Shown here: one piece after another, positions 1,558-34,084 of the stretch | Layout: every line of letters starts with the position of its first letter | Numbering within the stretch: position 1 is the first letter of the stretch | Assembly (NCBI GenBank): GCA_001600815.1 | Contig: BCKZ01000013.1 | Coordinates: 248,001 to 284,842 of the forward strand | Reading direction: 5' to 3' | DNA from: Alloascoidea hylecoeti | Taxonomy: Eukaryota | Length of the DNA: 36,842 bases | Position numbers and translations under genes: made by a program | Notes under the pieces: generated by a model | Databases searched by the model: none | What the model was told of the DNA's origin: nothing | Seen by the model: the letters and a program-made list of their open reading frames with translations, nothing else

Positions 1558-1832
1558 ATGGCTTTTATAAATAATTCATTAACCTCATACGTTGATAAAA
1601 AATTCTTTTTATTTCTTGGATTACTTATGGTACGGGAAGTTCAAGCTCATTCTGAGGATTTATCTCAAATAATCAGTCAAGATGTAAGTCTTTAAATTTA
1701 TGATTAAAATTGAAAAGAAGATGAATTAGGCACATTGAAGCAGTACTAACTTATGATTAATTATAGGAACTTTTGAAATCATCATTAGTCTTAATATCAA
1801 TCCTAAGAGTTACATCAATCATTAATATTTAA
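1558..1832 (+). CDS. Putative two-exon micro-protein, 63 aa (exons 1558-1683, 1767-1832)
   Basis: ATG in an A-rich context (aaacaaacacaATG), 42 codons, canonical phase-0 intron, then 21 codons to TAA. Product MAFINNSLTSYVDKKFFLFLGLLMVREVQAHSEDLSQIISQDELLKSSLVLISILRVTSIINI. No homolog recognised. Confidence 0.5.
1684..1766 (+). other. Spliceosomal intron (83 nt)
   Basis: GTAAGT at 1684, TACTAAC at 1744-1750, TAG acceptor ending 1766. Confidence 0.65.
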
Positions 1833-2348: not shown

Positions 2349-3944
2349 ATGGACTCGGATGATCAAGGAACTTTACCACAGGATATCAATGACCTGGATT
2401 TCTTAGATGAATCTTTAATAAATATTGGATTGGGCAATGGGACTAATGATAATGATCTTATAGCACCGCTGTTAGATGAGATATCGCAGGCTGCTCCAAA
2501 GATTTCCAGAATAATACCATCTTCTGGTCCTATTCGGGGAGGTATAGAGATTACAATTTTAGGTTCAAATCTTCATCCAGGGCTTTCAATTTCTTTTGGC
2601 CGAAACAAAGCCCTTGTGGCTCACTGTTGGAGTGATAATACAATCGTTACTTATTTACCACCAAGTGATAAACCAGGTCCTGTTAATGTTTTTGCCGACG
2701 ACCCCGATTTCATACTATCACGTCCGAATAATAATACCACTGTGACTCGAGCCTCCTCTAGTGAGTTCCCATTACGTGATCCCAACGGGCTAATATTTAC
2801 ATATTTAGACGATTCAGATCAAGAACTGATTGAACTAGCTTTGCAAATTATTGGTCTAAAAATGAACGGAAAACTAGAAGATGCCAAAAGTGTGGCAAGA
2901 CGGATTGTTGCAGGCCATCCTAACCCTCTTGGTTCATCAATTGGATCATTTTTAAGTCATAACGGTTATCAATTTACATCTTTTGAAGAAACAACATTAC
3001 AAATTTTAAAAACAACTGTACCTAATCAGGATTCTAGAAAACGAAATTGGTCTCTTCGAAACACAAGTGGTCAGACAATTTTACATTTAGCTGCTTTACT
3101 CGGTTATGAAGAGCTTGTAAAGTTCATTATACGCCATTTAAGATCTCAAAGTGTTGATATAAATATTAAGGATAATAATGGATTGACCGCTGAAACGCTT
3201 GCGAGATTTTATAACAAATTTCAGATTATGGACCTATTAGATCATACTACTAGTAATCATGATAATCTGATCTCCAATAATAATACAAACCGTGATATTA
3301 ATAATATTGGTGATATTAGTACTCATGATAACAATAATAATATAAACAACATTACCGGCTTAAATAATCCCATAATCGATTCCTTTAATAGCTTGAAGAT
3401 TGCATCTAGAACAATAATGACCCAGCTAAGCACAACTGAACAACCTCAATCAGAACCCCCATCATATGATGAATTATATCCAGAAACCTCAGATTCTCGA
3501 AAAGATTCAACGGGTTCTATTTCATCGTCCGGTAGTAATACTAGTGGCACAAGTACAAGAACTACAACAAGCACATCATCTCAACCTCGACTCCATTCAC
3601 CGAATTCTTCCGTCAATAGACACCACAACCACCGACAACAACAACAACGGCGTATACGAAATAAAAAACTAAGAGATGATCGTATGCTAATATATTTCTG
3701 GATCCCTCTTTTAATTCTCATGATAGGACTAACTGTCCTACACACAACAAACTCTACCCCTGATTATATTTTATACTTAGAACATGAAGCCGGTGAGTTG
3801 ATAAGAACATGGTCTGGAAGAATAATATTGGGTAGTAAGCGGATCCAGGCTATGAATAGAAATAGAAATGCTAATAATAATAATGATATTGACTTTGGAA
3901 AAATATTAGAAGGAGTGGCCGATGCTTTTAATGGTGTGGTATAA
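2349..3944 (+). CDS. Mga2/Spt23-like ER membrane protein (IPT/TIG domain, ankyrin repeats, PPxY motif, C-terminal TM helix); N-terminally short
   Basis: IPT motif PKISRIIPSSGPIRGGIEITILGSN...CWSDNTIVTYLPP; family motif FTYLDDSDQELIELALQIIGLKMNGKLEDA; ankyrin GQTILHLAALLGY; PPSY; TM DRMLIYFWIPLLILMIG resembling the Mga2 sensor helix. Confidence 0.85.
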   Translation: MDSDDQGTLPQDINDLDFLDESLINIGLGNGTNDNDLIAPLLDEISQAAPKISRIIPSSGPIRGGIEITILGSNLHPGLSISFGRNKALVAHCWSDNTIVTYLPPSDKPGPVNVFADDPDFILSRPNNNTTVTRASSSEFPLRDPNGLIFTYLDDSDQELIELALQIIGLKMNGKLEDAKSVARRIVAGHPNPLGSSIGSFLSHNGYQFTSFEETTLQILKTTVPNQDSRKRNWSLRNTSGQTILHLAALLGYEELVKFIIRHLRSQSVDINIKDNNGLTAETLARFYNKFQIMDLLDHTTSNHDNLISNNNTNRDINNIGDISTHDNNNNINNITGLNNPIIDSFNSLKIASRTIMTQLSTTEQPQSEPPSYDELYPETSDSRKDSTGSISSSGSNTSGTSTRTTTSTSSQPRLHSPNSSVNRHHNHRQQQQRRIRNKKLRDDRMLIYFWIPLLILMIGLTVLHTTNSTPDYILYLEHEAGELIRTWSGRIILGSKRIQAMNRNRNANNNNDIDFGKILEGVADAFNGVV

Positions 3945-7878: not shown

Positions 7879-9009
<1,131 letters not shown>

Positions 9010-13959: not shown

Positions 13960-16900
13960 ATGGCCTCGCGATCGATAGCTGAAGTGTTATCCGATGACGA
14001 ATTCAGTATCCTTTCCGATGAAGAATTTGAGGGCGGTATAAATGTTTCCAATTTTACACTACAGTCGGAGAAGGATTCACAACGGTTTGAAGTTGGAATA
14101 GAAAAGGATATTGAAGACGATAATATTTTTATAGGTGAAAATGATCATATGCAATTAAGTCCTGTGGCAGAAGATGATACACAAAAGCGTCTGCTTCCGA
14201 ACTTCAAAGTAAGGAATGACTCAGATATTGGCATCGATTATAATGTAGATAAGAATATTCATCCCCAGATTCAAAATCATGACAAGGATAGTTATATTTC
14301 AATAAATGATGGATCATACAGTGTTTCCAACTACAACGAATATGACGACGAAGCCATCCTCGAAGAAAGTTCTAATGATGATAATTTACCGACAACTACA
14401 GCCGATAATAATCTCCATCCAAATACCAATAATACTTCTATCTATGAAAGATCAAGAAAAAGCTATCCACCACGTTTAAGGTTGATAGCAAGATCTTCAA
14501 GCTCATCTTCATTAAATGCTGTTTCATCACCCATAGGCAATTCTTGGCCTAAACGTAGAAGCTATGGACCCCGTGTTCAAAGGGAACAATCATCGGAATT
14601 AAACAACCACTACAACTACTATCATGATTTGAAAAACCGGGAAGTCGAAGAAGTTGAATCAGAGTCTATTGAAAATGATGATGATAACCATGCACAACTT
14701 ACTTCAAAACGATCATCTATTAATCCTTATATCCTAACAAATTTTGGTTCAACGACAATTACAAACGATGGTAATAATAATAGCAACAACAGAATTTCAA
14801 AAAAGACACGTTCATCATCATTTTCCTCGACTTCAATTTCAAGCAGTAATACCCAAAATACAAACTCCATGCTATCGGAAAAACGTATTTTTGGAACTTC
14901 AGCTCAATCAGAAACATGCTTTATGTGTGTTGGAAATATAATAACATATGCTGCCGGTGCCGGAGTTGTTGTTGCATCTGTTATAAGTGGTCAAATAGTT
15001 GGTCAAAGATATTTCTGTGCTAATAATTATCAAACAACAGCAACTCATGGTTTTGGATCAAATTATGAAAAAGTAACCAGTCCAACATGTACAACAACAA
15101 TTTTTACAAATAATTCATCATTAGGTGATGATGGTTCATACATGAATATCAATAGAGAAGAACATGTCATTGTTTACAAAAAAAATATAAGGTCAACTCC
15201 TAATTTAGAAGATTCAAATTCAAAAAAAGGTTCATTACATGATAAAGTTAGAACAATATCTTGTTTAGCTTTCTCACAGGATGCAACATTATTAGCTGTT
15301 GGAGAGGTATGTCTATAATTATCAGAGTTTTTTAAAACATTTAGTTACTTATTTACTAACATTTGAAATCTATTCATAAAGGCTGGTTATCGTCCTAGAA
15401 TTCTAATTTATTCAGCTAAAAAATCAACTGACACCCCAATTGCAATAATCTATGAACATCAATTTGGGGTTAAAGCTTTAGCATTTTCACCAAAAGGAAA
15501 TTTCTTATCCTCCCTAGGGTTTTCAAACGATGGTTATTTATATATTTGGTCCTTAGAATATATAAATAAGTCCTCACAAAAAGCCAAAATTTTATTACAT
15601 TCAAGTAATAAATGTACTGCAGAAGTTAATAAAATGCTTTGGATAAATGAGAATAAAATTATAACTTTAGGATTAAGACATTTAAAAATCTGGAGGTTTG
15701 AAAATGATAATTATAACCAATCAAATTATTATGATGATAATGATAGAAAATCACAACCTATTAATTCTGCATTAGCCAAACCAAAAATAATAACTGGGAA
15801 GAGCGTTATTACTGGCAATGCTTATATAAGTAACCCAAATTTTACCGATTGTATACAAATCTTTGAAAATCTATTACTATTACTTACTGAAAATGGAGAA
15901 CTTTGTACTTTAATTGATTTCAATGATGATTATGATATTGATAGATTTAATAACAATATTGATAATAATAATAAAATTAAATCAAAAATTTTAGTATTAG
16001 ATTGGAGAGGTGGTATTTCAATGTGTTTTAAAAGTGGTTTGTTTGATACTAAGTCGATGAAAGTATGGTTGATCGGTAATGAAATTAATGAAATTGTTTC
16101 ATTTGATATAACTGATATATTAAACCTACCAATTATTAATAATGAAAAAGATTTTAAAAGGAGTATTCAAACTATAAATATTAATAATAAAACAAAAAAA
16201 AAATTGTATGATAAACAACAAAAAAATGGTTGTATTTCAATATCTTTACTTTCTGATGGTGGTATTGCATGCCTATCAAATTCTGGAGATATTGTGTATT
16301 TTTCAGCATATCAAAAAAAGCATGAACAATTTTTACAATTGAATACCTCAAAATGTTTAGTTTCTGGTTATAATTGTGGTATTAAAGGTATTAAAAATCT
16401 TAATAATACATGCAGTAAAACAATTCCATATAATATTAATTCAAATCAATCGGAGAATGGAAATGATATTGATAATGGGAAAAGTTTCTTAACATGGTCA
16501 GAAGATGGTTTAATTCGAATACGGAATTTTAATGATGGTTTCTATGAATTGAGTAATAAAACAATTGATGTTAAGTTAATGAAAAATCTAGATCTTGAAT
16601 TTCCATTGGACAATGTTTTAACTGCTGTTGCTGTTGGGTTTAATAATGAAATAATTGTTGGTGATAGATATGGAATTTTAAAAATATTTTTGCCAAATAT
16701 TAACAATAAAACAGATAGTGGTGAAAATAGTGATAGTGATGATAATTATGGTACTTTTGATAACAAAGAAAAAGTATTATATGAAGTCAAGGCTCATAGT
16801 TCTGAAATAAATGATATTCAAATCAGAAGATACGAAGAATTAGGTCTAGATATGATTTTTTCAATAAGTCGTGATAGAACAATTCAAATTTTTTATAAAT

Positions 16901-18810
16901 GGTATAAAAATTCTTCCTCATATTCACCTTCACCTAATATTAACCATGATAGTGATAATATTGAAGATGAAGAAGAAGGTTCTCCAAACGATTGGAATGT
17001 ATTACAAACACTTATTGTTCATAAAGGAAATGTTCAAAAATTACTTATTAGTGATGATAATAAATGGATTATAACTGGATCTTTGGATAGAACCGTTGCA
17101 ATTCATAAATTTAACTATCTCCCTGAATCTGGTAAATTATTTTTTACGTTATATAAATCCTTATCTTTGAAGTCATCACCAATTGAAATGTGTTTACATA
17201 GATTATCCTCACATTCACAATCAAGTGTTCAAACTCCAACTGGTTCACGTTCATTCTTATCACCATTTTTATCACCACTTAAACTACATCATAGCACATC
17301 TAAACTCAATTTAAAGAAGAATGATAATATTGATAATAGTGATTCATGTAGAGAAGAGCTTATTATTGTCACAAACGATAAACAAGTTAATATTTATAAA
17401 TTCCCCAATGGCCAATTTCATAGATCATTACGTTTAGCAGATACTAATGGGGAAACTTTGGGATTTTCTTTCTTATCTCTTGTTCCATTTCCAAATGATA
17501 TTACATTTATGATTGGTATTGGTACTGATAAAAGTATTCGAGCTTATGATTATAACACTGGACAATTATTATCATCTCGTTGGGGTCATTCAGGATCAAT
17601 TTCTAGTTTTATTGCATTTGAAAATAATAATAATGATTATATTTTTATAAGTTCTGGTTTAGATGGTTGTGTTTTCATTTGGGATTTTTCTCCTAATCGA
17701 AGTAAATTATTAAGAAAATCACAAAGTACAAGAAATATACATGATTTATTATCAATCGATTCACCAAGTATTGGTAGTTTTTCAGAGATCAATAACGAAG
17801 CAAATCAAAGTTTATTAAAACCTATAAGGAAAGTATGGGCAAAAAATGATTTATTAATAGCAAAGGATAATGAAGAACGATCACATTCATCAAGAAGTAC
17901 TTATAGATCACCATATTTAATGACACCAACATCTAGATCAAGCTCTCAAGTAAGGAAGCAGAAAAGTATGGAAATGTCTAGTAACAATACCCATAAACAT
18001 CCAATACATTCATTAAGTAAGGCTAGATCATTCATGAATATTTCTACTCAAAAGAACAATGATGATAATGATAATAATTTGAATGATGTGCGAGTGAATG
18101 AATTATCGGTTGTTGATAGATTAAGTCGAAGATCAATCTCGAGAATGTCAAGCCGTTCAAGTTTAAGAGAAGTACCAACACCACCACCATCTTTACAACG
18201 TAAACCATCAATGTCAATAGTGACTAATACTAATAGGACACTACAAAAGAGAGATTCATTCAGTTCTTTAAGAAATACGAATACTGAACTTAGAAGAAGA
18301 GCAAGCACAACTTTTGTAACTGATAAATCAAGATCTGAAAATACTAATAATAGCGATAACAAAACTGCACAGTCAACAATAGGAAAAAGACCACCAATAC
18401 AGCGAAACACTTCACGTCGAAGAGTATCATCATCATCGAGTAACACCAATATTAGTACTCCCCAACATATCAAAAACATCGATGATCATATTGAAGGACT
18501 AATTGACCAACTAGTGTCTTTTAGATCTTATTATAGCTGCCATGTTTATTCAGATCAGGCAAGATTAGAGAGACTAAAGAATCAGTTACATCAAACATTA
18601 TCTCAATTAAATGTTCCTATTGTTGAAAGAAGTCGAATGGATGAATTATTGGAACATTTTGCTGATAAACTTTGTAATGTTATTGAAAATAGAGATAAGG
18701 AGCCAGTAACTAATGAACTCCAAGATCAAATTCTTCATAAGATTGATGAAGATAAGAAAATTATTACATATGATAATGAAGATAATGATAAATGTGAAAA
18801 TGAGGGTTAG
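13960..18810 (+). CDS. Large WD40 protein, WDR62/MAPKBP1-like, 1591 aa (exons 13960-15306, 15382-18810)
   Basis: Splicing joins two track ORFs in frame: ISCLAFSQDATLLAVGE|AGYRPRILIYS...EHQFGVKALAFSP...NDGYLYIW...LHSSNKCT, with further WD repeats and Ser-rich termini. First ATG at 13960 (track start is TTG). Confidence 0.8.
15307..15381 (+). other. Spliceosomal intron (75 nt) with AAG acceptor
   Basis: GTATGT at 15307, TACTAAC at 15354-15360, first downstream AG ends 15381 and restores the frame. Confidence 0.85.
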
Positions 18811-20210: not shown

Positions 20211-21541
20211 TTAACACTTAACAAGGTCAACAACATTAAGATAAACAGGTTTACATTGTGTTCCAATAGCTTGGTCATATAAATTGAAAAAGTCACCAGA
20301 GAGACATTCATAAAAGACCGTTTCATTACCAATGGCTAATTTTCCACCAATAATATTCCAACCTGCGGCATAGATGGCACCAGCTTGTGGTGGAGGTCCA
20401 TCAAATTGGAATTGTCTATTAGCAACAATGGATCCAACACGCCCATGGGCATCAAGCAATATAGAGTCTTTAAGTGTCAAGGCTAAAGACTGATCAGAAA
20501 CACATGATACTGTATTGATCTCTTTCTTAGCAGGTGATTTGGGATCAATAGCATGCTTTTTATTTGCTTGCTTTACAGCGTGCTTTGGCTTATTATTTTT
20601 TTTGTTTTTACCTTGTATCTGACCATCTGTAATTTGGCTAATGACTGATGTAGTTGGAGCTTGGACCTGACCATCCCCAATTTGACTAATGGCTGGTGCA
20701 GTTGTGGTTGGAGCTTGAATTTGACCATCCCCAATTTGGCTAATTACTGGTACAGTTGTGGTTGGAGCTTGAATTTGACCATCCCCAATTTGGNNNNNNN
20801 NNNNNNNNNNNNNNNNNNNNNNNNNNNNNNNNNNNNNNNNNNNNNNNNNNNNNNNNNNNNNNNNNNNNNNNNNNNNNNNNNNNNNNNNNNNNNNNNNNNN
20901 NNNNNNNNNNNNNNNNNNNNNNNNNNNNNNNNNNNNNNNNNNNNNNNNNNNNNNNNNNNNNNNNNNNNNNNNNNNNNNNNNNNNNNNNNNNNNNNNNNNN
21001 NNNNNNNNNNNNNNNNNNNNNNNNNNNNNNNNNNNNNNNNNNNNNNNNNNNNNNNNNNNNNNNGAGCTTGAATTTGACCATCCCCAATTTGACTAATTAC
21101 TGGTACAGTTGTAGTTGGAGCTTGAATTTGACCATCCCCAATTTGACTAATTACTGGTGCAGTTGTTGTAGTTGGAGCTTGAATCTGACCATCTGTAATT
21201 TGAGAGACAACATCTGTAATTCCTGTTGAGGCTTGAACTTGGCCATCTGAAATTTGAGAATTGGGATTTTGACCACTTTTAGTAGCAGTGACAATGGTAG
21301 TTCTTTGTTCTGTCGATCGTATCTCTGCTGCTGCTGTTGTTGTTAGCTCAGATGTATATGTATTTCCAGCACTATCAGTTGAAATTGGAACAATTGCAAC
21401 CCCAAAGGTTCCAGAGTATCCTGTATTAGCACCAGCTAGATGTTTAGCTTCGGGTTTCAGAGCTTTCCAAGGATCTTTAGGAACGTATGCACCAAAAGCC
21501 AAACCGGCTGCGATAAGAGGAACAACTAGTTTTATTTGCAT
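20211..21541 (-). CDS. PIR (protein with internal repeats) cell-wall protein, interrupted by an assembly gap
   Basis: Signal peptide, YVP.DPW..LKP, DGQIQ repeats and a C-terminal four-Cys domain with [29 protein letters not shown]. The track ORFs at 20744-21541 and 20211-20480 are one gene. Confidence 0.92.
20610..21260 (-). repeat. Coding tandem repeat, mostly 54-nt units ([18 protein letters not shown])
   Basis: Eight DGQ[I/V]Q units visible, four on each side of the gap; true copy number unknown. Confidence 0.92.
20794..21063. other. Assembly gap (270 N)
   Basis: Run of N inside the PIR repeat array. Confidence 1.
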
Positions 21542-21639
21542 TTTTATCCCAGATTCTTCAAAACTTCGACAAAATACAAATGGAATGATCTCCTTAGATT
21601 GTTTAGGTTTATAGCTACTGAAAAATTGGAACGAAGCTC

Positions 21640-21739
21640 TTATATATAGAAGTTCTATATATATTTATAGAGTTTCATCTTTTTCTTTTTCTTTTTTTCG
21701 ATAAACAATTGCAATATGAGTAGCTAGCTCTATATATAG
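21640..21739. promoter_or_regulatory. Rlm1-like MADS sites / TATA region upstream of the PIR gene
   Basis: CTATATATAG at 21730-21739 fits CTAW4TAG; TAW4TAG also at 21641-21649 and 21662-21670. PIR genes are Rlm1 targets in S. cerevisiae. The AT-rich background lowers specificity. Confidence 0.45.
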
Positions 21740-23611
21740 AAGATACATGTGGATCAATGCCAAAATGACAAATATTACCATTTTAAAACTCTAATATTCA
21801 ACAAGGGGGAAACTTTGTTCTTCCTTTAACAGCTCTTAATTAGTGTTTTTTTTTTTTAATATATATCTTAGCAATCTTACTCCTTCTTCTGTATTATATT
21901 AGCTGTATTAGGATGGAAAGCTTATTGCCAAAATGATTTTAACTCAGCTGTTATTTCATAGCAATTCAAATCAATTTCAAATCTAAAAGAGTAATATGCA
22001 GATCTAAAGATATAGATAGCTGCAATATCAGTAGAACTAGAAATCGATTTGGGATATATAAATTCTTGCTCTTCTCTGCCATTGAATATATGTAGAAGTA
22101 TAAACATACTCGACCATTATTTTTACCAAATATTCGACAACAACAAAACTCAAATTCATTGTTCATATAAAATCTAAACTGCATCACGCGTATCTTGTTT
22201 ACACAGCGTTGCAATGCAATCAATTTTTGCAATTTTGAGTACGCGTCCATTATCCTCATAAAAAAAGGGAAAACATCAATATGCATATATCAATCACATA
22301 CCTACATATGCACCATCTTTATTTTAAAGCTTTTTCATCTTTATAATTAGGCAAAGCCAAGGTTCTTATAAATTATATGACACAACGATACTGTAGTAGC
22401 AATATTAATATGAAATAAATTTTAAGAGATGGTGACTTAAAATACTCATAATTGATTGAAGAAACAGCCTGCAGCACCCGTTGTATAAATATGCCTAATA
22501 CAGTAATATGCATATACGTGTAAGTTAAATTAATTTCAAGAGGAACAAATTGTAATTGATGATTATTGAGCTCGACATTTGTTTTTCAGTTGGTATAATA
22601 TTAAAAAAAGAGCAGTCGATAGATATATTCAACATATTTGTACTATGACATAGCACCATCTTGAAGCACTGATTTCTTAGTTGATCTCCTGTAATGTATC
22701 GGTGAAATTTCGAAACTATAAGATATTAATATTAATTTCATTAAATAACTTTATACAGATCTTATTGATGTAATTGGATTGAGGGATTATGTGTGGAATT
22801 GTGAATCCGATCTTCATTTAGATGGTTTAAATTGTGATTGTAAGGTTAGAATTATCTATAATTAGATAATTATACTTCAAGCAGAGTTAAAAGAATATAG
22901 TACCCTTTTAAAGATCTAGAAATAGCAACAGATATTCTTTTTTCAAAGGATTCCGATAGCAGCCAGTCCCAAATAATTGAAAACCATGATGAAAGCGTTT
23001 ATAATTTTATCTGTACATATCTATAATTGAATCGAGCATATTCATATAACTTCTGATTATGAACTGTAATTATTATCGATATATACAAACTTAAAAGAAC
23101 CCTATATATCTCATATGCTCTGTTTTATATTGCAAGAACAACATTAGTTTGCTATTAGTATTCTATAGTTAGTAACTATAATTTATTAATTATAAAAAAT
23201 GATTATATATCTTAAGTGTTAAAATTTTAAGTTTCTATATATAGTAGATGCTTTTGGAAAAAGAAATTCTGATATAAACGCCGATTGGATTTTAACAAGC
23301 TTGTGCTAATAAAGCGAATGATTCAATGATTAACTAAAGTTGGGACATTACATTTGAAAGCTTAAGGGAACTATTATCAATTTTTCCGGATGTACCGATT
23401 CTTTCCCAGAAATTTATCAAATACAGTATTTTCTACCGATAATCTACCACCTGCCTAATTTGCAGAACATTTCGCTTCCACACGCCCATTTTAAGTGCAA
23501 TTGTAATTGCCATTGTTAGATAAAATAGATTCCTGATTGAATATATATCATGGTGAATTCAATTGAACACATTTATATTCAATATATTTATATTTGAAGA
23601 ATAATATTGGT

Positions 23612-23780
23612 CCGTCGAATGGGATTAACTTGGTTCATCAACAAGAGAGATAAGAAGTTATATGAAATTGAACTGACCCATGAAGAGACTTGCTAGCATG
23701 ATGAGCTCATGAGATTGGTTTTGGGATCATATAACTTCTTATCTCTCTTGTTGATGAACCGAGTTAATTCCATTCGACGG
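23612..23780. repeat. Long inverted repeat: 54-bp arms (23612-23665, 23727-23780), 61-nt spacer
   Basis: Arms match at 52 of 54 positions by manual alignment; both differences form G-U pairs on the + strand. Confidence 0.95.
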
Positions 23781-24892
23781 GCAGCACCAGTAAAACCAAA
23801 ATCCCAAGGTTTGAACGAATCTCTTTCCAACATAAGCTTGGACGGTGTCCACGAAGTTGTTAAGACGCGGACATAGCACCCCTACCATATTCGCTTTTAC
23901 TCTCCCCCAACTTCACAAGCACTTGCATTGTTCCAGCTAAATGCTTAATATCACTCTCTATCCAATAAATAACTATTGCCCACATGATATACTAAATATT
24001 CGGGCACCGCTCTTTGAGATAAATGTAAGATATTAGTGCTGGTTTCTGCGCAGGTTCTCAGTTATACGGTTACTATTAAGATTAGAGTTATTTCTCTCAT
24101 GTGACGACTTACCTTCACAACTTTTTAATCAATGCTTACTAATTTCTGCGCGTCAATGCAATAATATGGAGGATATCCACGTGCAGAAACCCTCAAAAAA
24201 TCTTAGGATTTCACCCTCTTAGGGTACACGGATCACATTTTCTCATAGGAATGAGGGTAAATCTGACCCTTTGTGGTGATCCATATATATGAAACACCCA
24301 AAGACCTAATAATATAAGTAATGAAATTTGAAAGAAAGAAAACAAATTCCATTAAGTATAGTTATCTTTTACTTATTTAATAGATTATTACACTTGTGAC
24401 AGATCACTTACTTAGTGGTTCGTAAACTCTACTCGGTACCCGATTTTAGTAGTTCCCTTTGGTTGGATACTTTCCTTACTGTTGGTTAGTAACTCCCATA
24501 CCTAGTGATTATCATGTAAGTAACTGAAACGTTAACCACCCGTTTACAAACTAAATTTCCACTGTTTATGACTTCGATATAATAGCTAATTTTTTATTTC
24601 ACTGTTTAAAAGCTATATAAACTACTTATGAAGTAGAGATAAATTCAAGATAATGGGCTTTTTGACGAAATTGAAAACAATCAGATAAAATTAATTAAAA
24701 GAATAAAAATTAGAAAATGGGTAATCCTCTCACAATTACCAACTATGACGAAAAATTTAAAATAGTAAACAGTGAACTTAGTTTATCCATTTTTTAACTC
24801 TTTAATAATTTAAACCAAGGAAATAATTTAAAGAGCCAATTTTTCTGATCAGTTGTATTTGTAATTGCGAGTATTACCGGGGGAGTTGATTG

Positions 24893-25594
24893 TCAACAAA
24901 CCGCCACTGGTTCTCTAACCATACAAGGTAATTCAATAATATCATTATTATGAATATTAATTGTAACTGTTCTTTTTGTTTCAAAACCAAATCTATTATA
25001 AATTGGAATATTTGATATTTTTGATGATTCTAAGTAACAAGGTTCATTTGCAGCATCAGCGATATCAGTAACAGTATTGATTAATTTTCTAGCAAAACCT
25101 TTACCTCTAGCACATGGTAATGTACCAATGTAAGTTAAATACCATGAATTTTCATCTCGATCTTTTAAGATATCCAATTTAACATTTTCAAGAACACTTT
25201 CATATTCATCAAAAATAATTCTTCTGCCTTCTTTACCGAGTTTGAATAATAATTTCCATTCTCCGCTTCTTAAGGAAGTAATCCAATCTGTAGTATCAGC
25301 GCCCGGCGGTAACCAACAAGCAACAGCTTCAAAATCACCAACGGCATAAACTACACCTTTAAGAATATGAGCATAAACAATACATTCAAACATTTCTAGG
25401 TCTAATTGTTTTGCTTGTTCTGGAGTTCTACCACCGACCTGGGAAAGATAGGATTCCAAAGGGTCATCTTCAAACGCAATTTGAAGAGTCCTTGCAGCTT
25501 GTTTATAGTCAGCTAAAGTGAGGATGCGTACATTATAAATATTTTGTGGGGAATTAGAATTTTTGAGTGAAATGGTGGATAAGCTCTCTGACGT
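24893..25594 (-). CDS. Fungal GNAT-family N-acetyltransferase; start uncertain, probably non-AUG (drawn from ACG at 25594)
   Basis: Motif A WYLTYIGTLPCARGKGFARKLI, motif B PCYLESSKISNIPIYNRFGF. Frame is open upstream to a stop at 25616-25618 and encodes VRILTLADYKQAARTLQIAFEDDPL before the track start. Confidence 0.85.
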   Translation of the reverse strand, partial: TSESLSTISLKNSNSPQNIYNVRILTLADYKQAARTLQIAFEDDPLESYLSQVGGRTPEQAKQLDLEMFECIVYAHILKGVVYAVGDFEAVACWLPPGADTTDWITSLRSGEWKLLFKLGKEGRRIIFDEYESVLENVKLDILKDRDENSWYLTYIGTLPCARGKGFARKLINTVTDIADAANEPCYLESSKISNIPIYNRFGFETKRTVTINIHNNDIIELPCMVREPVAVC

Positions 25595-26466
25595 AAAACG
25601 ATAACTAAATGCTAATTAATTGAAATTATTAGCTTGGCCCTAACAAGGGTTGGGAAAAAGTATGAAGTTTTGTAGTTGTGAAGAAGAGAAAAAAGAAAAT
25701 GAGAAATTGGCACGTTTATATAATATGCATAAATCGCTCGAATATCAGCCACTGCCCAAAAAGGAAGCTGAATGCTTGCATAAGACACTCGGCTGTCATA
25801 CAACTGAACGCATGTGAGTACCGCCCTTCTCCATTCATGTTCGAAGCCTTTCATCAAAATTCTCACGATTTAGGTATATAAGTCAGAAAGTTTATTAACT
25901 CTCATGATGGTTATTATTGTTATCATTCTTCAATTATTGCCACAGAAAATAATACCCTTATCTTTAAAGTTCGGCTTTCAGCCACGCGTATGTGCAACCG
26001 ATGAAAGTTCTTTATGGTAACTGGAGCCGTTCAAGATCACGGCCAATGAAACATATTATTATCGTGGGACTCATGGCGTTTCTGACATGTTCCGATCAAC
26101 AAAAAAATATTCCTATACATATTACAGTAACCCACGGAACATTAAGTTTAATGACTGCGTAAAGTTTATACTGAGTAATTATCAGCATGCTTGCGACCAA
26201 AAAAGCCAACCAGATGATATCAAAAGATATTCTTTTAAGATTTTAGAAACAAATGATTATATATATCAAACTTTGAGGGTCTTCATAATGAACTCTTCTT
26301 GTTACTTTGAAAATAATCACTACATTGTACCAACTTTTTAGTACCAAGCTTTTTCGAAAAGCCTATCTCGATTAATGCATTATCTATCTCAAATATATTT
26401 CTATTTATGCAGGTAAATATTTTTATCTATTTCTATTTAATAAATTATTCCATTCAATTCAATTAA

Positions 26467-27780
26467 TTAAAACTGTTCAAAATATCTTTTAACAGATTCA
26501 ACTTCTCCTTTGTTGTATGTCAAAACTTTTCCTTGCCATTTACCTTTAGCACCACCTCCTTTAATTTCTTTGATTAATTCCTTAATTTGAGTCGAAACCT
26601 CTGTACATTTTTCACCTTGAATAATAACAGCTCCACCATCTTCTCTTTCACCACAAAATAATAATAAAGTCCCTAATTCTGGTGTTTTTAATAAGTTTAT
26701 ACCAAGATTATTCAATTCTTTTAATACTGCGTTAAGATATTCCATACCTGAATCACTTCTATAAACTAAAGATTTTTTATTAACTAATAATTCTTCTTTA
26801 ATTCTTTTAGCTTCATATGATGCAACTTCAGACATCCAATTACGTTCTTTAGTTGTTAATTTTCTTAATTGTGAATTAACTTGTAATATTTTTTCTTCTA
26901 AATTATCTTGCTGACAAGATAATTGAGAATTAATATTTCTAATTAATTCATTTTGTTTTATTGTAAAATTAACAATTCTATCGCCACAAATAAAATGTAA
27001 TCTACTATTTGTACCTCTAATTGAAGTTTGATATAACAAAACCATTAAACCAATTTCAAAAGTTGATTTTAAATGAGTACCACAACATGGATTTGAATCC
27101 AATTCACCAATATGAATAACTCTTAATATACCTTGTGATGTATCATAATCATCTGGCATTTTTGATTTATTAACATTTTCAGGATTTGGAATTTCTAATC
27201 TAACTGGTATAGATTTTTTAATTGAATCATTTACTTCTTTTGATACTTTTTCAATTTCATCATTCGTTAATTTTCTTGGTAATTCAATATAATTTATAAC
27301 TTCACCCATTGACCAACTTAAAGTATTTAAATTCATTTTATCTAAAATTGCAGAAAGTAAATGTTGTCCAGTATGTTGTTGCATATGATCATATCTTTTT
27401 GACCATTTTAAATTCAATTCAACTTTTGTACCTGGTTCAATAAAATCTTCAACTTCATGTTTTGCTAATAATCCATCACGTCTAACATATAAAACAGGAA
27501 TTTCTAAATTTGAAGATAAAATTTTAATTGTACCTGTATCTGAAGGTTGACCACCACCTTCTGGAAATAATATAGTATTTTCTAATTCAACTTCATATTT
27601 TCCAAGTTTCTTTTCTATTTGTGATGATTCATCATTACTTTTTTTACCTTTTGCTTTATTTTTACTTTTACCTTTTGGTTCCGCTTTTAATATATTTTCA
27701 ACACATGAAGTAACTGTTGTAGTATAACTTCTTAGATATGAATCATTTTGACAGGCCAAAGCACCAACAATTGCAGTCAT
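26467..27780 (-). CDS. ALX1: AlaX-type alanyl-tRNA editing protein (AlaXp; YNL040W-like)
   Basis: TILFPEGGGQPSDTG, zinc ligands in HMQQHTGQHLLSA and NPCCGTH, C-terminal KGGG..GKWQGK. Confidence 0.9.
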   Translation of the reverse strand: MTAIVGALACQNDSYLRSYTTTVTSCVENILKAEPKGKSKNKAKGKKSNDESSQIEKKLGKYEVELENTILFPEGGGQPSDTGTIKILSSNLEIPVLYVRRDGLLAKHEVEDFIEPGTKVELNLKWSKRYDHMQQHTGQHLLSAILDKMNLNTLSWSMGEVINYIELPRKLTNDEIEKVSKEVNDSIKKSIPVRLEIPNPENVNKSKMPDDYDTSQGILRVIHIGELDSNPCCGTHLKSTFEIGLMVLLYQTSIRGTNSRLHFICGDRIVNFTIKQNELIRNINSQLSCQQDNLEEKILQVNSQLRKLTTKERNWMSEVASYEAKRIKEELLVNKKSLVYRSDSGMEYLNAVLKELNNLGINLLKTPELGTLLLFCGEREDGGAVIIQGEKCTEVSTQIKELIKEIKGGGAKGKWQGKVLTYNKGEVESVKRYFEQF

Positions 27781-32043: not shown

Positions 32044-34084
32044 TCAAAATAAGAATTGTAAAATTAAAGCAGTAACAATCATAAAAAATATACTTTTCCA
32101 AGTAAAATTCCAATTATCATTATTATCATCATCAATTGTATCTTGTAAGACTTTTAAAGTTACTAATGAATTATTACTATTAGTATATCCATTAAACTTT
32201 GAATTTGTGTTGTAATTTGAATTTTCAATATCGATTTCAGATTGAGATTCATTTTCATTTTCATTTTCAATAATTAATCTTGATAAATCTTCATCTAATG
32301 GTAATGAATAAGATCTACTTAATGATGATAATCTTTTCTTTTTAATTCCATTTTTCATTCCGTTTTTTAATTTTGTTTTTGATTTTGAATTTAATTTTGG
32401 TTTTAAATTTGAATTGATGATAATATGTTCATCTTCATCAACTTCATCAACTTGTTCTAAATTTTTCTTTCCATTAATATTATTATTATCAAAATTTTTA
32501 TTATTTTTATTATTTTTATAATAATTTAATTGTAAATTTTCCCATTCTTTTTCATCATTTGAATTAATATCACTTAAATCAGAATCTGAAAAATAATTAA
32601 AATTTTCATTTTCAAAATCTAAATTTGATGAATCAATTGAATTAATACTACCAAATGACGAAATTCTTGATGATATTTTATTATTTCCATTTCTTTGATT
32701 AATATTATTTGAATTATAAAAATTTGATGAATTATTTGATGAACCAGGTAATGATAATCTTTTCAAACTTTTTGATTTTTTTTTAATGTTTAATTGTGAT
32801 TGAGATTTTGATTTTAATCTTGATTTTAAAGATAAAGAACCAAATGATTTTCGTTTATTAACTTTTCTATTTGATGTTATTGTCGAAGAATATTTTAAAA
32901 TATTAAAATCTTCTGTTAATTGTTGTAATTTAGTTGATAAATCATTAATTTTTTCAGTATATATAGTATTTTGTAATGATAAATTATCAATTATTAATTT
33001 ATCTTTATATGATTGTGATTGAGATAAAGATCTAGAACTAATATTTTCATCTATATTAGATAATGATTTATCATTAAAAATATTATTTTTATTTTTATTT
33101 TTTAAAATATCTTTTTCAAAAGAAAAACTATCATCATCATCATCATCATATGTATCATTATCATTTAAAATTGAATTTGAATTAGAACTTTTAATTGGTG
33201 ATAAATTTAAATGTTTTAATTTTTTTTCACGTTCTTTTTCTAAATTTAAAATTTGATATTCAATATGTTCAATATATTTTAAAGATTCAACAGATTTTTT
33301 TTTTAGTTCGTTATATTTAGAATCTTTTTCTTTTATTACTTTTGATAATTGATTTTTTTCAAATGTTAATGATTCAATTATATTATCCCTATATTCAATT
33401 TCAATTTCATTATCATTACTATCGTTAACATTAATTTCATTTTCTTTATTATAATTATAATCATTGGTATCTATTGGCTCATCGTTTATGAAAGTGGTTG
33501 AATTTGTGATAGATGCAGGATTGATATTAAAATCTAATTCTGGATTTATAGGAGTATTTGGTAGTAAAGTTAAGGAACCATGTTTATCATTAAGGTTATG
33601 GGAAGAAACAGGTAAAGGATGGTTTTTTTGTGGGCTTATAACCAAAGGAGTAACACCTATAGATTTTCGCCGTCTTAGTTGTTGCTTTTTGTATTTTTTT
33701 AGGATATGAGGCGGAATGATAACTAAAGCATTGAATAATTCTTGAAATTCATCCCTTGTCATGGATAGTTCCAAGCGTGGAGTCAACGTTAGAGGTGGGC
33801 TTTGCAGTTGGGGGATTTGTAGGAACTTTTCGGTATCTAGACGGGTTGAGCTGGATAACAGCGATTCTGCTGGAAGTTGAAGTTTTGCTTCCAGAAGGTC
33901 GATTACAGATATAAACTGACCACATGGGATCTACAATTAGTACTAGTCAGTCAGTCGCCCCGGAAAACTAAATTAAATAGAAGTAAAAGCAACATACCGT
34001 TCCGTCGACGGAAAGAAACTCCAAGCGGTCCCAGACAAGATCCACGACGTGTGAATAAACATCCAAATCGATGTCCAAATCCAT
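32044..34084 (-). CDS. Tail-anchored coiled-coil protein, Mps2/Csm4-like N-terminus, 657 aa (exons 34084-33998, 33930-32044)
   Basis: Exon 1 MDLDIDLDVYSHVVDLVWDRLEFLSVDGT splices in frame to IPCGQFISVIDLLEAKL...LLSS...MTRDEFQELFNALV; central coiled coils; terminal TM SIFFMIVTALILQFLF. Gene model is solid; family call is by pattern recall. Confidence 0.65.
33931..33997 (-). other. Spliceosomal intron (67 nt)
   Basis: GTATGT donor at 33997, TACTAAT branch at 33942-33936, TAG acceptor at 33931; phase 0, frame-preserving. Confidence 0.85.

Follow-up and report, generated by a model that had tools for sequence, protein, structure and literature searches.

Initiation at near-cognate codons in budding yeast reaches only a few percent of the level obtained at AUG. 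Among the yeast genes with non-AUG N-terminal extensions, ALA1 starts at ACG and GRS1 at UUG. Such extensions have been described in yeast and in Neurospora (PMC6582344; PMC5487733 on cpc-1). Genes of the ALA1/GRS1/cpc-1 type have an in-frame near-cognate codon 5' of the first AUG in a leader that is AUG-free, and the downstream AUG also yields a working protein, giving two isoforms. The S. cerevisiae gene HFA1, encoding the mitochondrial acetyl-CoA carboxylase, has an upstream AUU start (PMC4263661). In the account given there, the functional product of this budding yeast gene needs in-frame, AUG-free sequence 5' of the first AUG, read from the near-cognate start, and the resulting extension is a mitochondrial targeting signal that is conserved in other yeasts and was mapped experimentally.

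The gene considered here encodes a GNAT acetyltransferase and lies on the minus strand of a stretch of Alloascoidea hylecoeti DNA of 36,842 nt (contig BCKZ01000013.1, positions 248,001-284,842, assembly GCA_001600815.1), the whole of which we call the window. Like HFA1, it has required in-frame coding sequence 5' of its first AUG, no in-frame AUG within that sequence and an AUG-free leader. It differs from HFA1 in that the AUG-free part belongs to the catalytic fold, and in that the case is known here from sequence alone. It differs from the ALA1/GRS1/cpc-1 type in that the downstream in-frame AUG would give a broken fold, so that a non-AUG start would be obligate. In fold and family the protein goes with puromycin N-acetyltransferase (PDB 7k09), and the fungal "N-acetyltransferase domain-containing" proteins of Nadsonia (ODQ63618.1) and Yarrowia (YALI0E34221p) belong to the same family; compared with these members, the initiator ATG is absent only here. 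The gene also resembles start-lost alleles and young unitary pseudogenes, which likewise combine a single base change in the start codon with an otherwise perfect ORF. Further decay is expected of a pseudogene, but there is none in the GNAT gene, which limits only the age of such an event. In the literature searched, no GNAT of this family is reported as a non-AUG case, a point on which an earlier note on this DNA had asked for a check.

The GNAT frame is open on the minus strand from 25615 to 24893, giving 240 codons between an upstream TAA and the TGA at 24895-24893. The space 5' of it on that strand is bounded by the stop of the neighbouring gene at 26467. The features of the locus are as follows.

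25616-25618, minus strand: in-frame TAA that closes the GNAT frame upstream.
24893-25594, minus strand: coding region of the puromycin-N-acetyltransferase-like GNAT, from the ACG candidate to the TGA, 233 codons plus stop, with Pfam, AlphaFold and PDB 7k09 profile matches.
25592-25594, minus strand: ACG, near-cognate candidate 1, codon 8, T at -3.
25571-25573, minus strand: ATT, near-cognate candidate 2, codon 15, preceded by ACC, A at -3.
25538-25540, minus strand: ATT, near-cognate candidate 3, codon 26, preceded by AAT, A at -3, three codons ahead of beta1.
25513-25533, minus strand: first AUG of the presumed mRNA, out of frame, A at -3, opening a 6-codon ORF that ends at TAG 25515-25513.
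25391-25393, minus strand: first in-frame ATG, codon 75, start of the public 166-aa model (P0001), within a helix.
25534-25729, minus strand: ATG-free stretch of 196 nt, with no ATG in any frame of the minus strand; presumed leader and N-terminal codons.
25715-25722, minus strand: TATATAAA, possible TATA box 121 nt 5' of the ACG, its function presumed.
25091-25108, minus strand: R-G-K-G-F-A, acetyl-CoA pyrophosphate-binding motif; G171, K172 and G173 are invariant in alignment A1.
25796-25801, minus strand: GTATGA, donor-like, used in an upstream-exon model with ATG 25854 or ATG 25838.
25628-25634, minus strand: AGCTAAT, weak branch-point-like motif, used in the same upstream-exon model with GTATGA 25801.

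The positions that the earlier note had given for the TAA (25618-25616), ACG 25594, ATT 25573, ATT 25540 and TATATAAA (25722-25715) are all correct. So is its statement that the first ATG after TATATAAA is the one at 25533, out of frame and six codons long; it is the next minus-strand ATG after 25730. It is followed by a second out-of-frame ATG at 25467 (minus strand), which opens an ORF of 21 codons. CTG codons are absent from the GNAT ORF, so an alternative genetic code is irrelevant to its reading. The length of the ATG-free stretch is not significant taken alone: it was matched in 13% of 5000 composition-matched shuffles, and 3% of the window's gaps between one ATG and the next reach the same length. 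The T at -3 of ACG 25594 makes a poor context. ATT 25573 and ATT 25540 have A there, which is not beyond chance in DNA so rich in AT; A at -3 is also found at 8 of the 12 first ATGs of the window's long ORFs. RNA folding gave no stabilising hairpin downstream of the candidate start codons (z = +0.81). A bacterial-type promoter and terminator scan, of a kind not applicable to yeast, found nothing above shuffles.

GNATs carry an acetyl-CoA motif, R/Q-x-x-G-x-G/A, after beta4. The motif is present here in the form listed above. Pfam matches are to Acetyltransf_9 at 26.8 bits (cut-off 25) and Acetyltransf_1 at 24.1 bits (cut-off 20.7), with Acetyltransf_7 slightly under its cut-off (26.5 bits, cut-off 27). 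A family profile built from 59 members matches puromycin N-acetyltransferase (PDB 7k09) over profile positions 7-226, near full length, at E 3.8e-35. The AlphaFold model of the 233 aa counted from the ACG has a mean pLDDT of 93.3. Its best Foldseek match is again 7k09, at E 1.2e-13, and the other matches listed are likewise solved GNAT acetyltransferases. By predicted fold and family, the gene product is a puromycin-N-acetyltransferase-like GNAT, and the assignment to the GNATs in the earlier note is borne out by all three of these approaches.

In the model, residues 1-20 are disordered, beta1 occupies residues 22-24, and helices follow at 27-40, 45-52 and 58-79. The codon of ATG 25393 is model residue 68, in the middle of helix 58-79. 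A protein started there would, on the predicted structure, lose beta1, helices 27-40 and 45-52 and half of helix 58-79, which agrees with the earlier description of this ATG as lying well inside the fold. A complete fold would result from a start at any of the three near-cognate codons, since all are predicted to lie in the disordered leader or at its end.

All retrieved homologues, named and unnamed, have a Met from 2 to about 90 residues ahead of beta1, and some start as little as 2-4 residues ahead of it. The nearest is a protein of Nadsonia fulvescens (P0013) at 47% identity. The BLASTP match to it reaches 17 residues upstream of beta1 and comes within two residues of the homologue's Met. 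Query residue 11 pairs with P0013 residue 3, which puts Met1 of P0013 at about query residue 9; the ACG is residue 8. A metagenome scan with the single protein as query found no relative, and a scan with an alignment found 80 homologous loci, none above 50% identity. Nine of these lack the N-terminal part in the alignment and one runs off its contig end, leaving 70 that are testable. In 68 of the 70 there is an in-frame ATG ahead of beta1 in the same uninterrupted frame, many of the 68 being near-duplicates rather than independent cases. The two ATG-less loci, L062 and L063, are near-identical to each other; they were rejected as parallels, being bacterial-like, with 60% GC and an in-frame TTG. 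The ATG-less state is therefore found in 0 of the 68 eukaryote-like loci that are testable. Because it is unique against that background, the missing ATG is, judged from the homologues, a derived loss peculiar to this yeast and recent on the time scale of the family, and such a loss would suit a young null allele just as well. Nothing in these comparisons points to a non-AUG start that is conserved or selected. The position of the Nadsonia Met within one residue of the ACG does agree with the reading in the earlier note, whose description of a conserved domain with no AUG ahead holds for the N-terminal conserved part.

One of the closest metagenome relatives (49% identity) is at 1471-2151 on the plus strand of locus L001, a 16-kb contig of 48% GC, and has a normal ATG start seven codons ahead of beta1 with A at -3. 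Protein collections of 5.8 billion clusters and 1.84 billion representatives yielded no GNAT ortholog above 50% identity, and neither did the metagenome loci. The nearest named family members are in Nadsonia, Yarrowia and Schizosaccharomyces. The family is patchy among yeasts, and this distribution suggests that it is dispensable in them. The host itself is, from the sequence of the window, an isolated and very AT-rich (29% GC) budding-yeast lineage. The window encodes a LYS1-like saccharopine dehydrogenase (7879-9000, minus strand), whose best non-self match is at 76% identity and whose matches are spread over many yeast orders. It also encodes complex I (NDUFA12) and PIR proteins. In the 3.3 kb at 21541-24893 there is no ORF of at least 150 aa, and Rfam and tRNA scans, run on the whole window, found nothing there or elsewhere.

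At columns at least 80% conserved among 58 homologues, the query keeps 25 of 25 non-Met residues: all 5 that precede residue 68 and all 20 that follow. The sole conserved column that it misses is the initiator Met. In the ratio of mean identity before residue 68 to that after it, the query ranks 25th of 59 sequences. By these measures, the ATG-less N-terminal part is under no relaxed constraint and is kept as in normal members of the family. A codon-usage model trained on the 12 long ORFs of the window gives log-odds of +0.24 per codon in frame from the ACG to beta1, compared with +0.10 and -1.18 in the two other frames; the in-frame values are +0.51 from beta1 to codon 74 and +0.74 over the rest. 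The 233 codons contain neither a stop nor a frameshift, and all conserved residues are kept. In codons 8-240, a stop would arise from 122 of the 2097 possible single-base changes. By a rough estimate that assumes uniform mutation and ignores indels, an unselected copy would have less than a 5% chance of being stop-free beyond about 0.07 neutral substitutions per site, and the chance would be less with indels. On this evidence, the alternatives are a translated N-terminal part and a very recent loss of the start. The search for pseudogene lesions beyond the start codon thus found no disabling change and no relaxation of constraint, a result compatible with a very young null allele.

The earlier note had allowed for the ACG being a misread ATG. 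This was checked in Logan contigs from three DNA runs of three studies. Each spans 24800-26100 in one piece, with 0 differences from the window and 0 gaps over 1301 bases. A sequencing error of ACG for ATG, or an indel near 25533, is therefore very unlikely. The label of one run is a wood-decay metagenome; the other two bear the same organism name. The runs possibly are the window's source or the same strain; since contigs drop minor variants, a second minor or heterozygous allele may also exist. One metatranscriptome run, from the same study as one of the DNA runs, had no match on the stretch.

This yeast does place start codons behind 5' introns, and two introns in the window show the canonical signals that it uses. 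One is in the gene at 32044-34084 (minus strand), which has no Pfam match. The intron, 33997-33931, is 67 nt long with GTATGT, TACTAAT and TAG, and it joins an 87-nt first exon, with ATG 34084, exactly to the start at 33930 of the long frame that ends at 32044. Because exon 1 carries ATG 34084, the first ATG of the long ORF, at 33762, is not the start. The other intron, 15307-15381, is in a WD40 gene and has 75 nt with GTATGT, TACTAAC and AAG. The plus-strand ORFs at 13960-15318 and 15634-18810 (WD40 repeats) appear to form one gene, partly joined by this intron. There is also a candidate intron of 83 nt at 1684-1766 (plus strand), with GTAAGT, TACTAAC and TAG, upstream of a TIG/ankyrin ORF at 2349-3944, a gene in which a first exon may likewise lie upstream. 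A TACTAAC at 24485 (minus strand) has a GTATGG just 4 nt ahead of it, and no intron would fit that spacing.

Upstream of the GNAT frame, neither GTATGT nor TACTAAC occurs on the minus strand from 25615 to 26466. The only donor-like sites are GTGGGT, GTGAGA and GTATGA, and the only branch-like sites are TGCTGAT, TTCTGAC, GGCTGAT and AGCTAAT. An exhaustive search under relaxed rules gave eight frame-compatible, stop-free joins, three of them with GTATGA. The least bad combines GTATGA 25801 and AGCTAAT with an acceptor ending at 25612 or 25605, for an intron of 190-197 nt.

A normal AUG start would be restored if such an intron had gone unrecognised, with an exon from ATG 25854 or 25838 spliced from GTATGA 25801 to the acceptor at 25605 or 25612. 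That frame-compatible joins exist under relaxed signals, and that 5'-proximal introns are real in this organism, speaks for it. Nevertheless, we regard an upstream ATG exon as improbable, because the window introns use GTATGT with TACTAAC or TACTAAT and the model can offer only GTATGA with AGCTAAT. It requires a branch site three positions off TACTAAC and an intron of well above the 67 and 75 nt of the two clear ones, and it would put the TATA box inside the intron. In addition, the uninterrupted frame from ATG through beta1 at 68 of 70 testable loci means that no N-terminal intron is needed there. The splice model that the earlier note had called weak (GTATGA 25801, GCTAAT, acceptor 25605) thus exists, yet is poor by the organism's own intron standards. 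It is still less probable that the public 166-aa model is right and that the truncated protein is the product. ATG 25393 is indeed the first in-frame ATG, and the model is in the protein collections as P0001. But the start deletes the elements of the fold named above, the homologues have a non-conserved internal residue (I, M, F or L) at the aligned position, and two out-of-frame ATGs (25533 and 25467) precede it. The 47 codons upstream of it also keep every conserved family residue, which is unexpected for untranslated DNA. No more credible is the reading in which ATG 25533 is the old start, its frame lost by a one-base indel, and the open frame upstream is due to chance. This ATG has A at -3, it overlaps the codons just ahead of beta1 where some homologues start, and we roughly estimate that an open frame of 28 codons would arise by chance about 10% of the time at 29% GC. 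Against it are the reach of the BLASTP match toward the Met of the Nadsonia homologue, the positive in-frame codon score and the absence of an indel from the contigs of the three runs. A programmed frameshift from ATG 25533 into the GNAT frame was considered and rejected; it would have to be -1 or +2, no slippery site is seen, and the product would be without a proper beta1.

What is left to weigh against near-cognate initiation is a young null or hypomorphic allele, an incipient pseudogene in which the change from ATG to ACG is so recent that no second lesion has appeared and any near-cognate translation is unselected noise. We put its odds only a little below those of near-cognate initiation. 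None of the 68 eukaryote-like loci shares the ATG-less state, and the ACG is one transition from ATG at nearly the position of the nearest homologue's Met. Its context is poor, the patchy family is probably dispensable, no closer ortholog was found in any collection searched, and the three matching read sets may share one strain. On the other side, the lack of any lesion in 233 codons and the unrelaxed N-terminal part would require the loss to be very recent, on the rough estimate given above. Functional near-cognate initiation at ACG 25594, ATT 25573 or ATT 25540 is the reading we put forward tentatively, at somewhat under an even chance. It is favoured because the ORF is intact, the conserved columns are kept, the codon score is positive in frame, the sequence is identical in the contigs of the three runs, two of the three candidates have A at -3, and there is precedent in yeast; the AUG-free leader adds a weak point. 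It is weakened because the ACG has T at -3, no hairpin follows the candidates, no other eukaryote-like member tested shares the state, the family is patchy, and non-AUG efficiency is low. All of the points in its favour would equally be expected of a very young null allele. On balance, that the GNAT gene is still used, at low output, is narrowly favoured. Obligate non-AUG initiation, as proposed in the earlier note, is accordingly offered as a candidate reading rather than a finding. The anatomy, the reality of the sequence and the poverty of the intron escape are on its side; no sign of conservation of, or selection for, a non-AUG start was seen.

Under near-cognate initiation, the events may be pictured as follows. 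The gene would have lost the AUG that is found in every other examined eukaryotic member of the family, most simply by a change from ATG to ACG at 25594. The mRNA presumably starts between the possible TATA box (25722) and about 25600, and its leader would carry no AUG until the out-of-frame AUG at 25533. The full fold would be made only if a scanning 43S complex started at ACG 25594, AUU 25573 or AUU 25540. Ribosomes that scanned past all three would translate the 6-codon ORF, and possibly the 21-codon ORF after it, and would be largely lost to the enzyme. It is conceivable, though less likely than not, that selection has retained the loss of the AUG because it keeps output very low, or links it to start-codon stringency, and that the first AUG of the mRNA serves as a sink outside the frame. 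That enzyme output might be set by eIF1/eIF5 stringency is pure inference.

The public 166-aa model at the locus appears to be a truncated artefact of choosing the first ATG. A young null allele would make the gene an ordinary start-lost variant, of interest for annotation only. Should it still be used, it would stand among the rare eukaryotic genes in which the core of an enzyme depends on an obligate non-AUG start, most known cases concerning an optional targeting extension. It would then also provide a natural and simple reporter of start-codon stringency from a yeast lineage that has been little studied.
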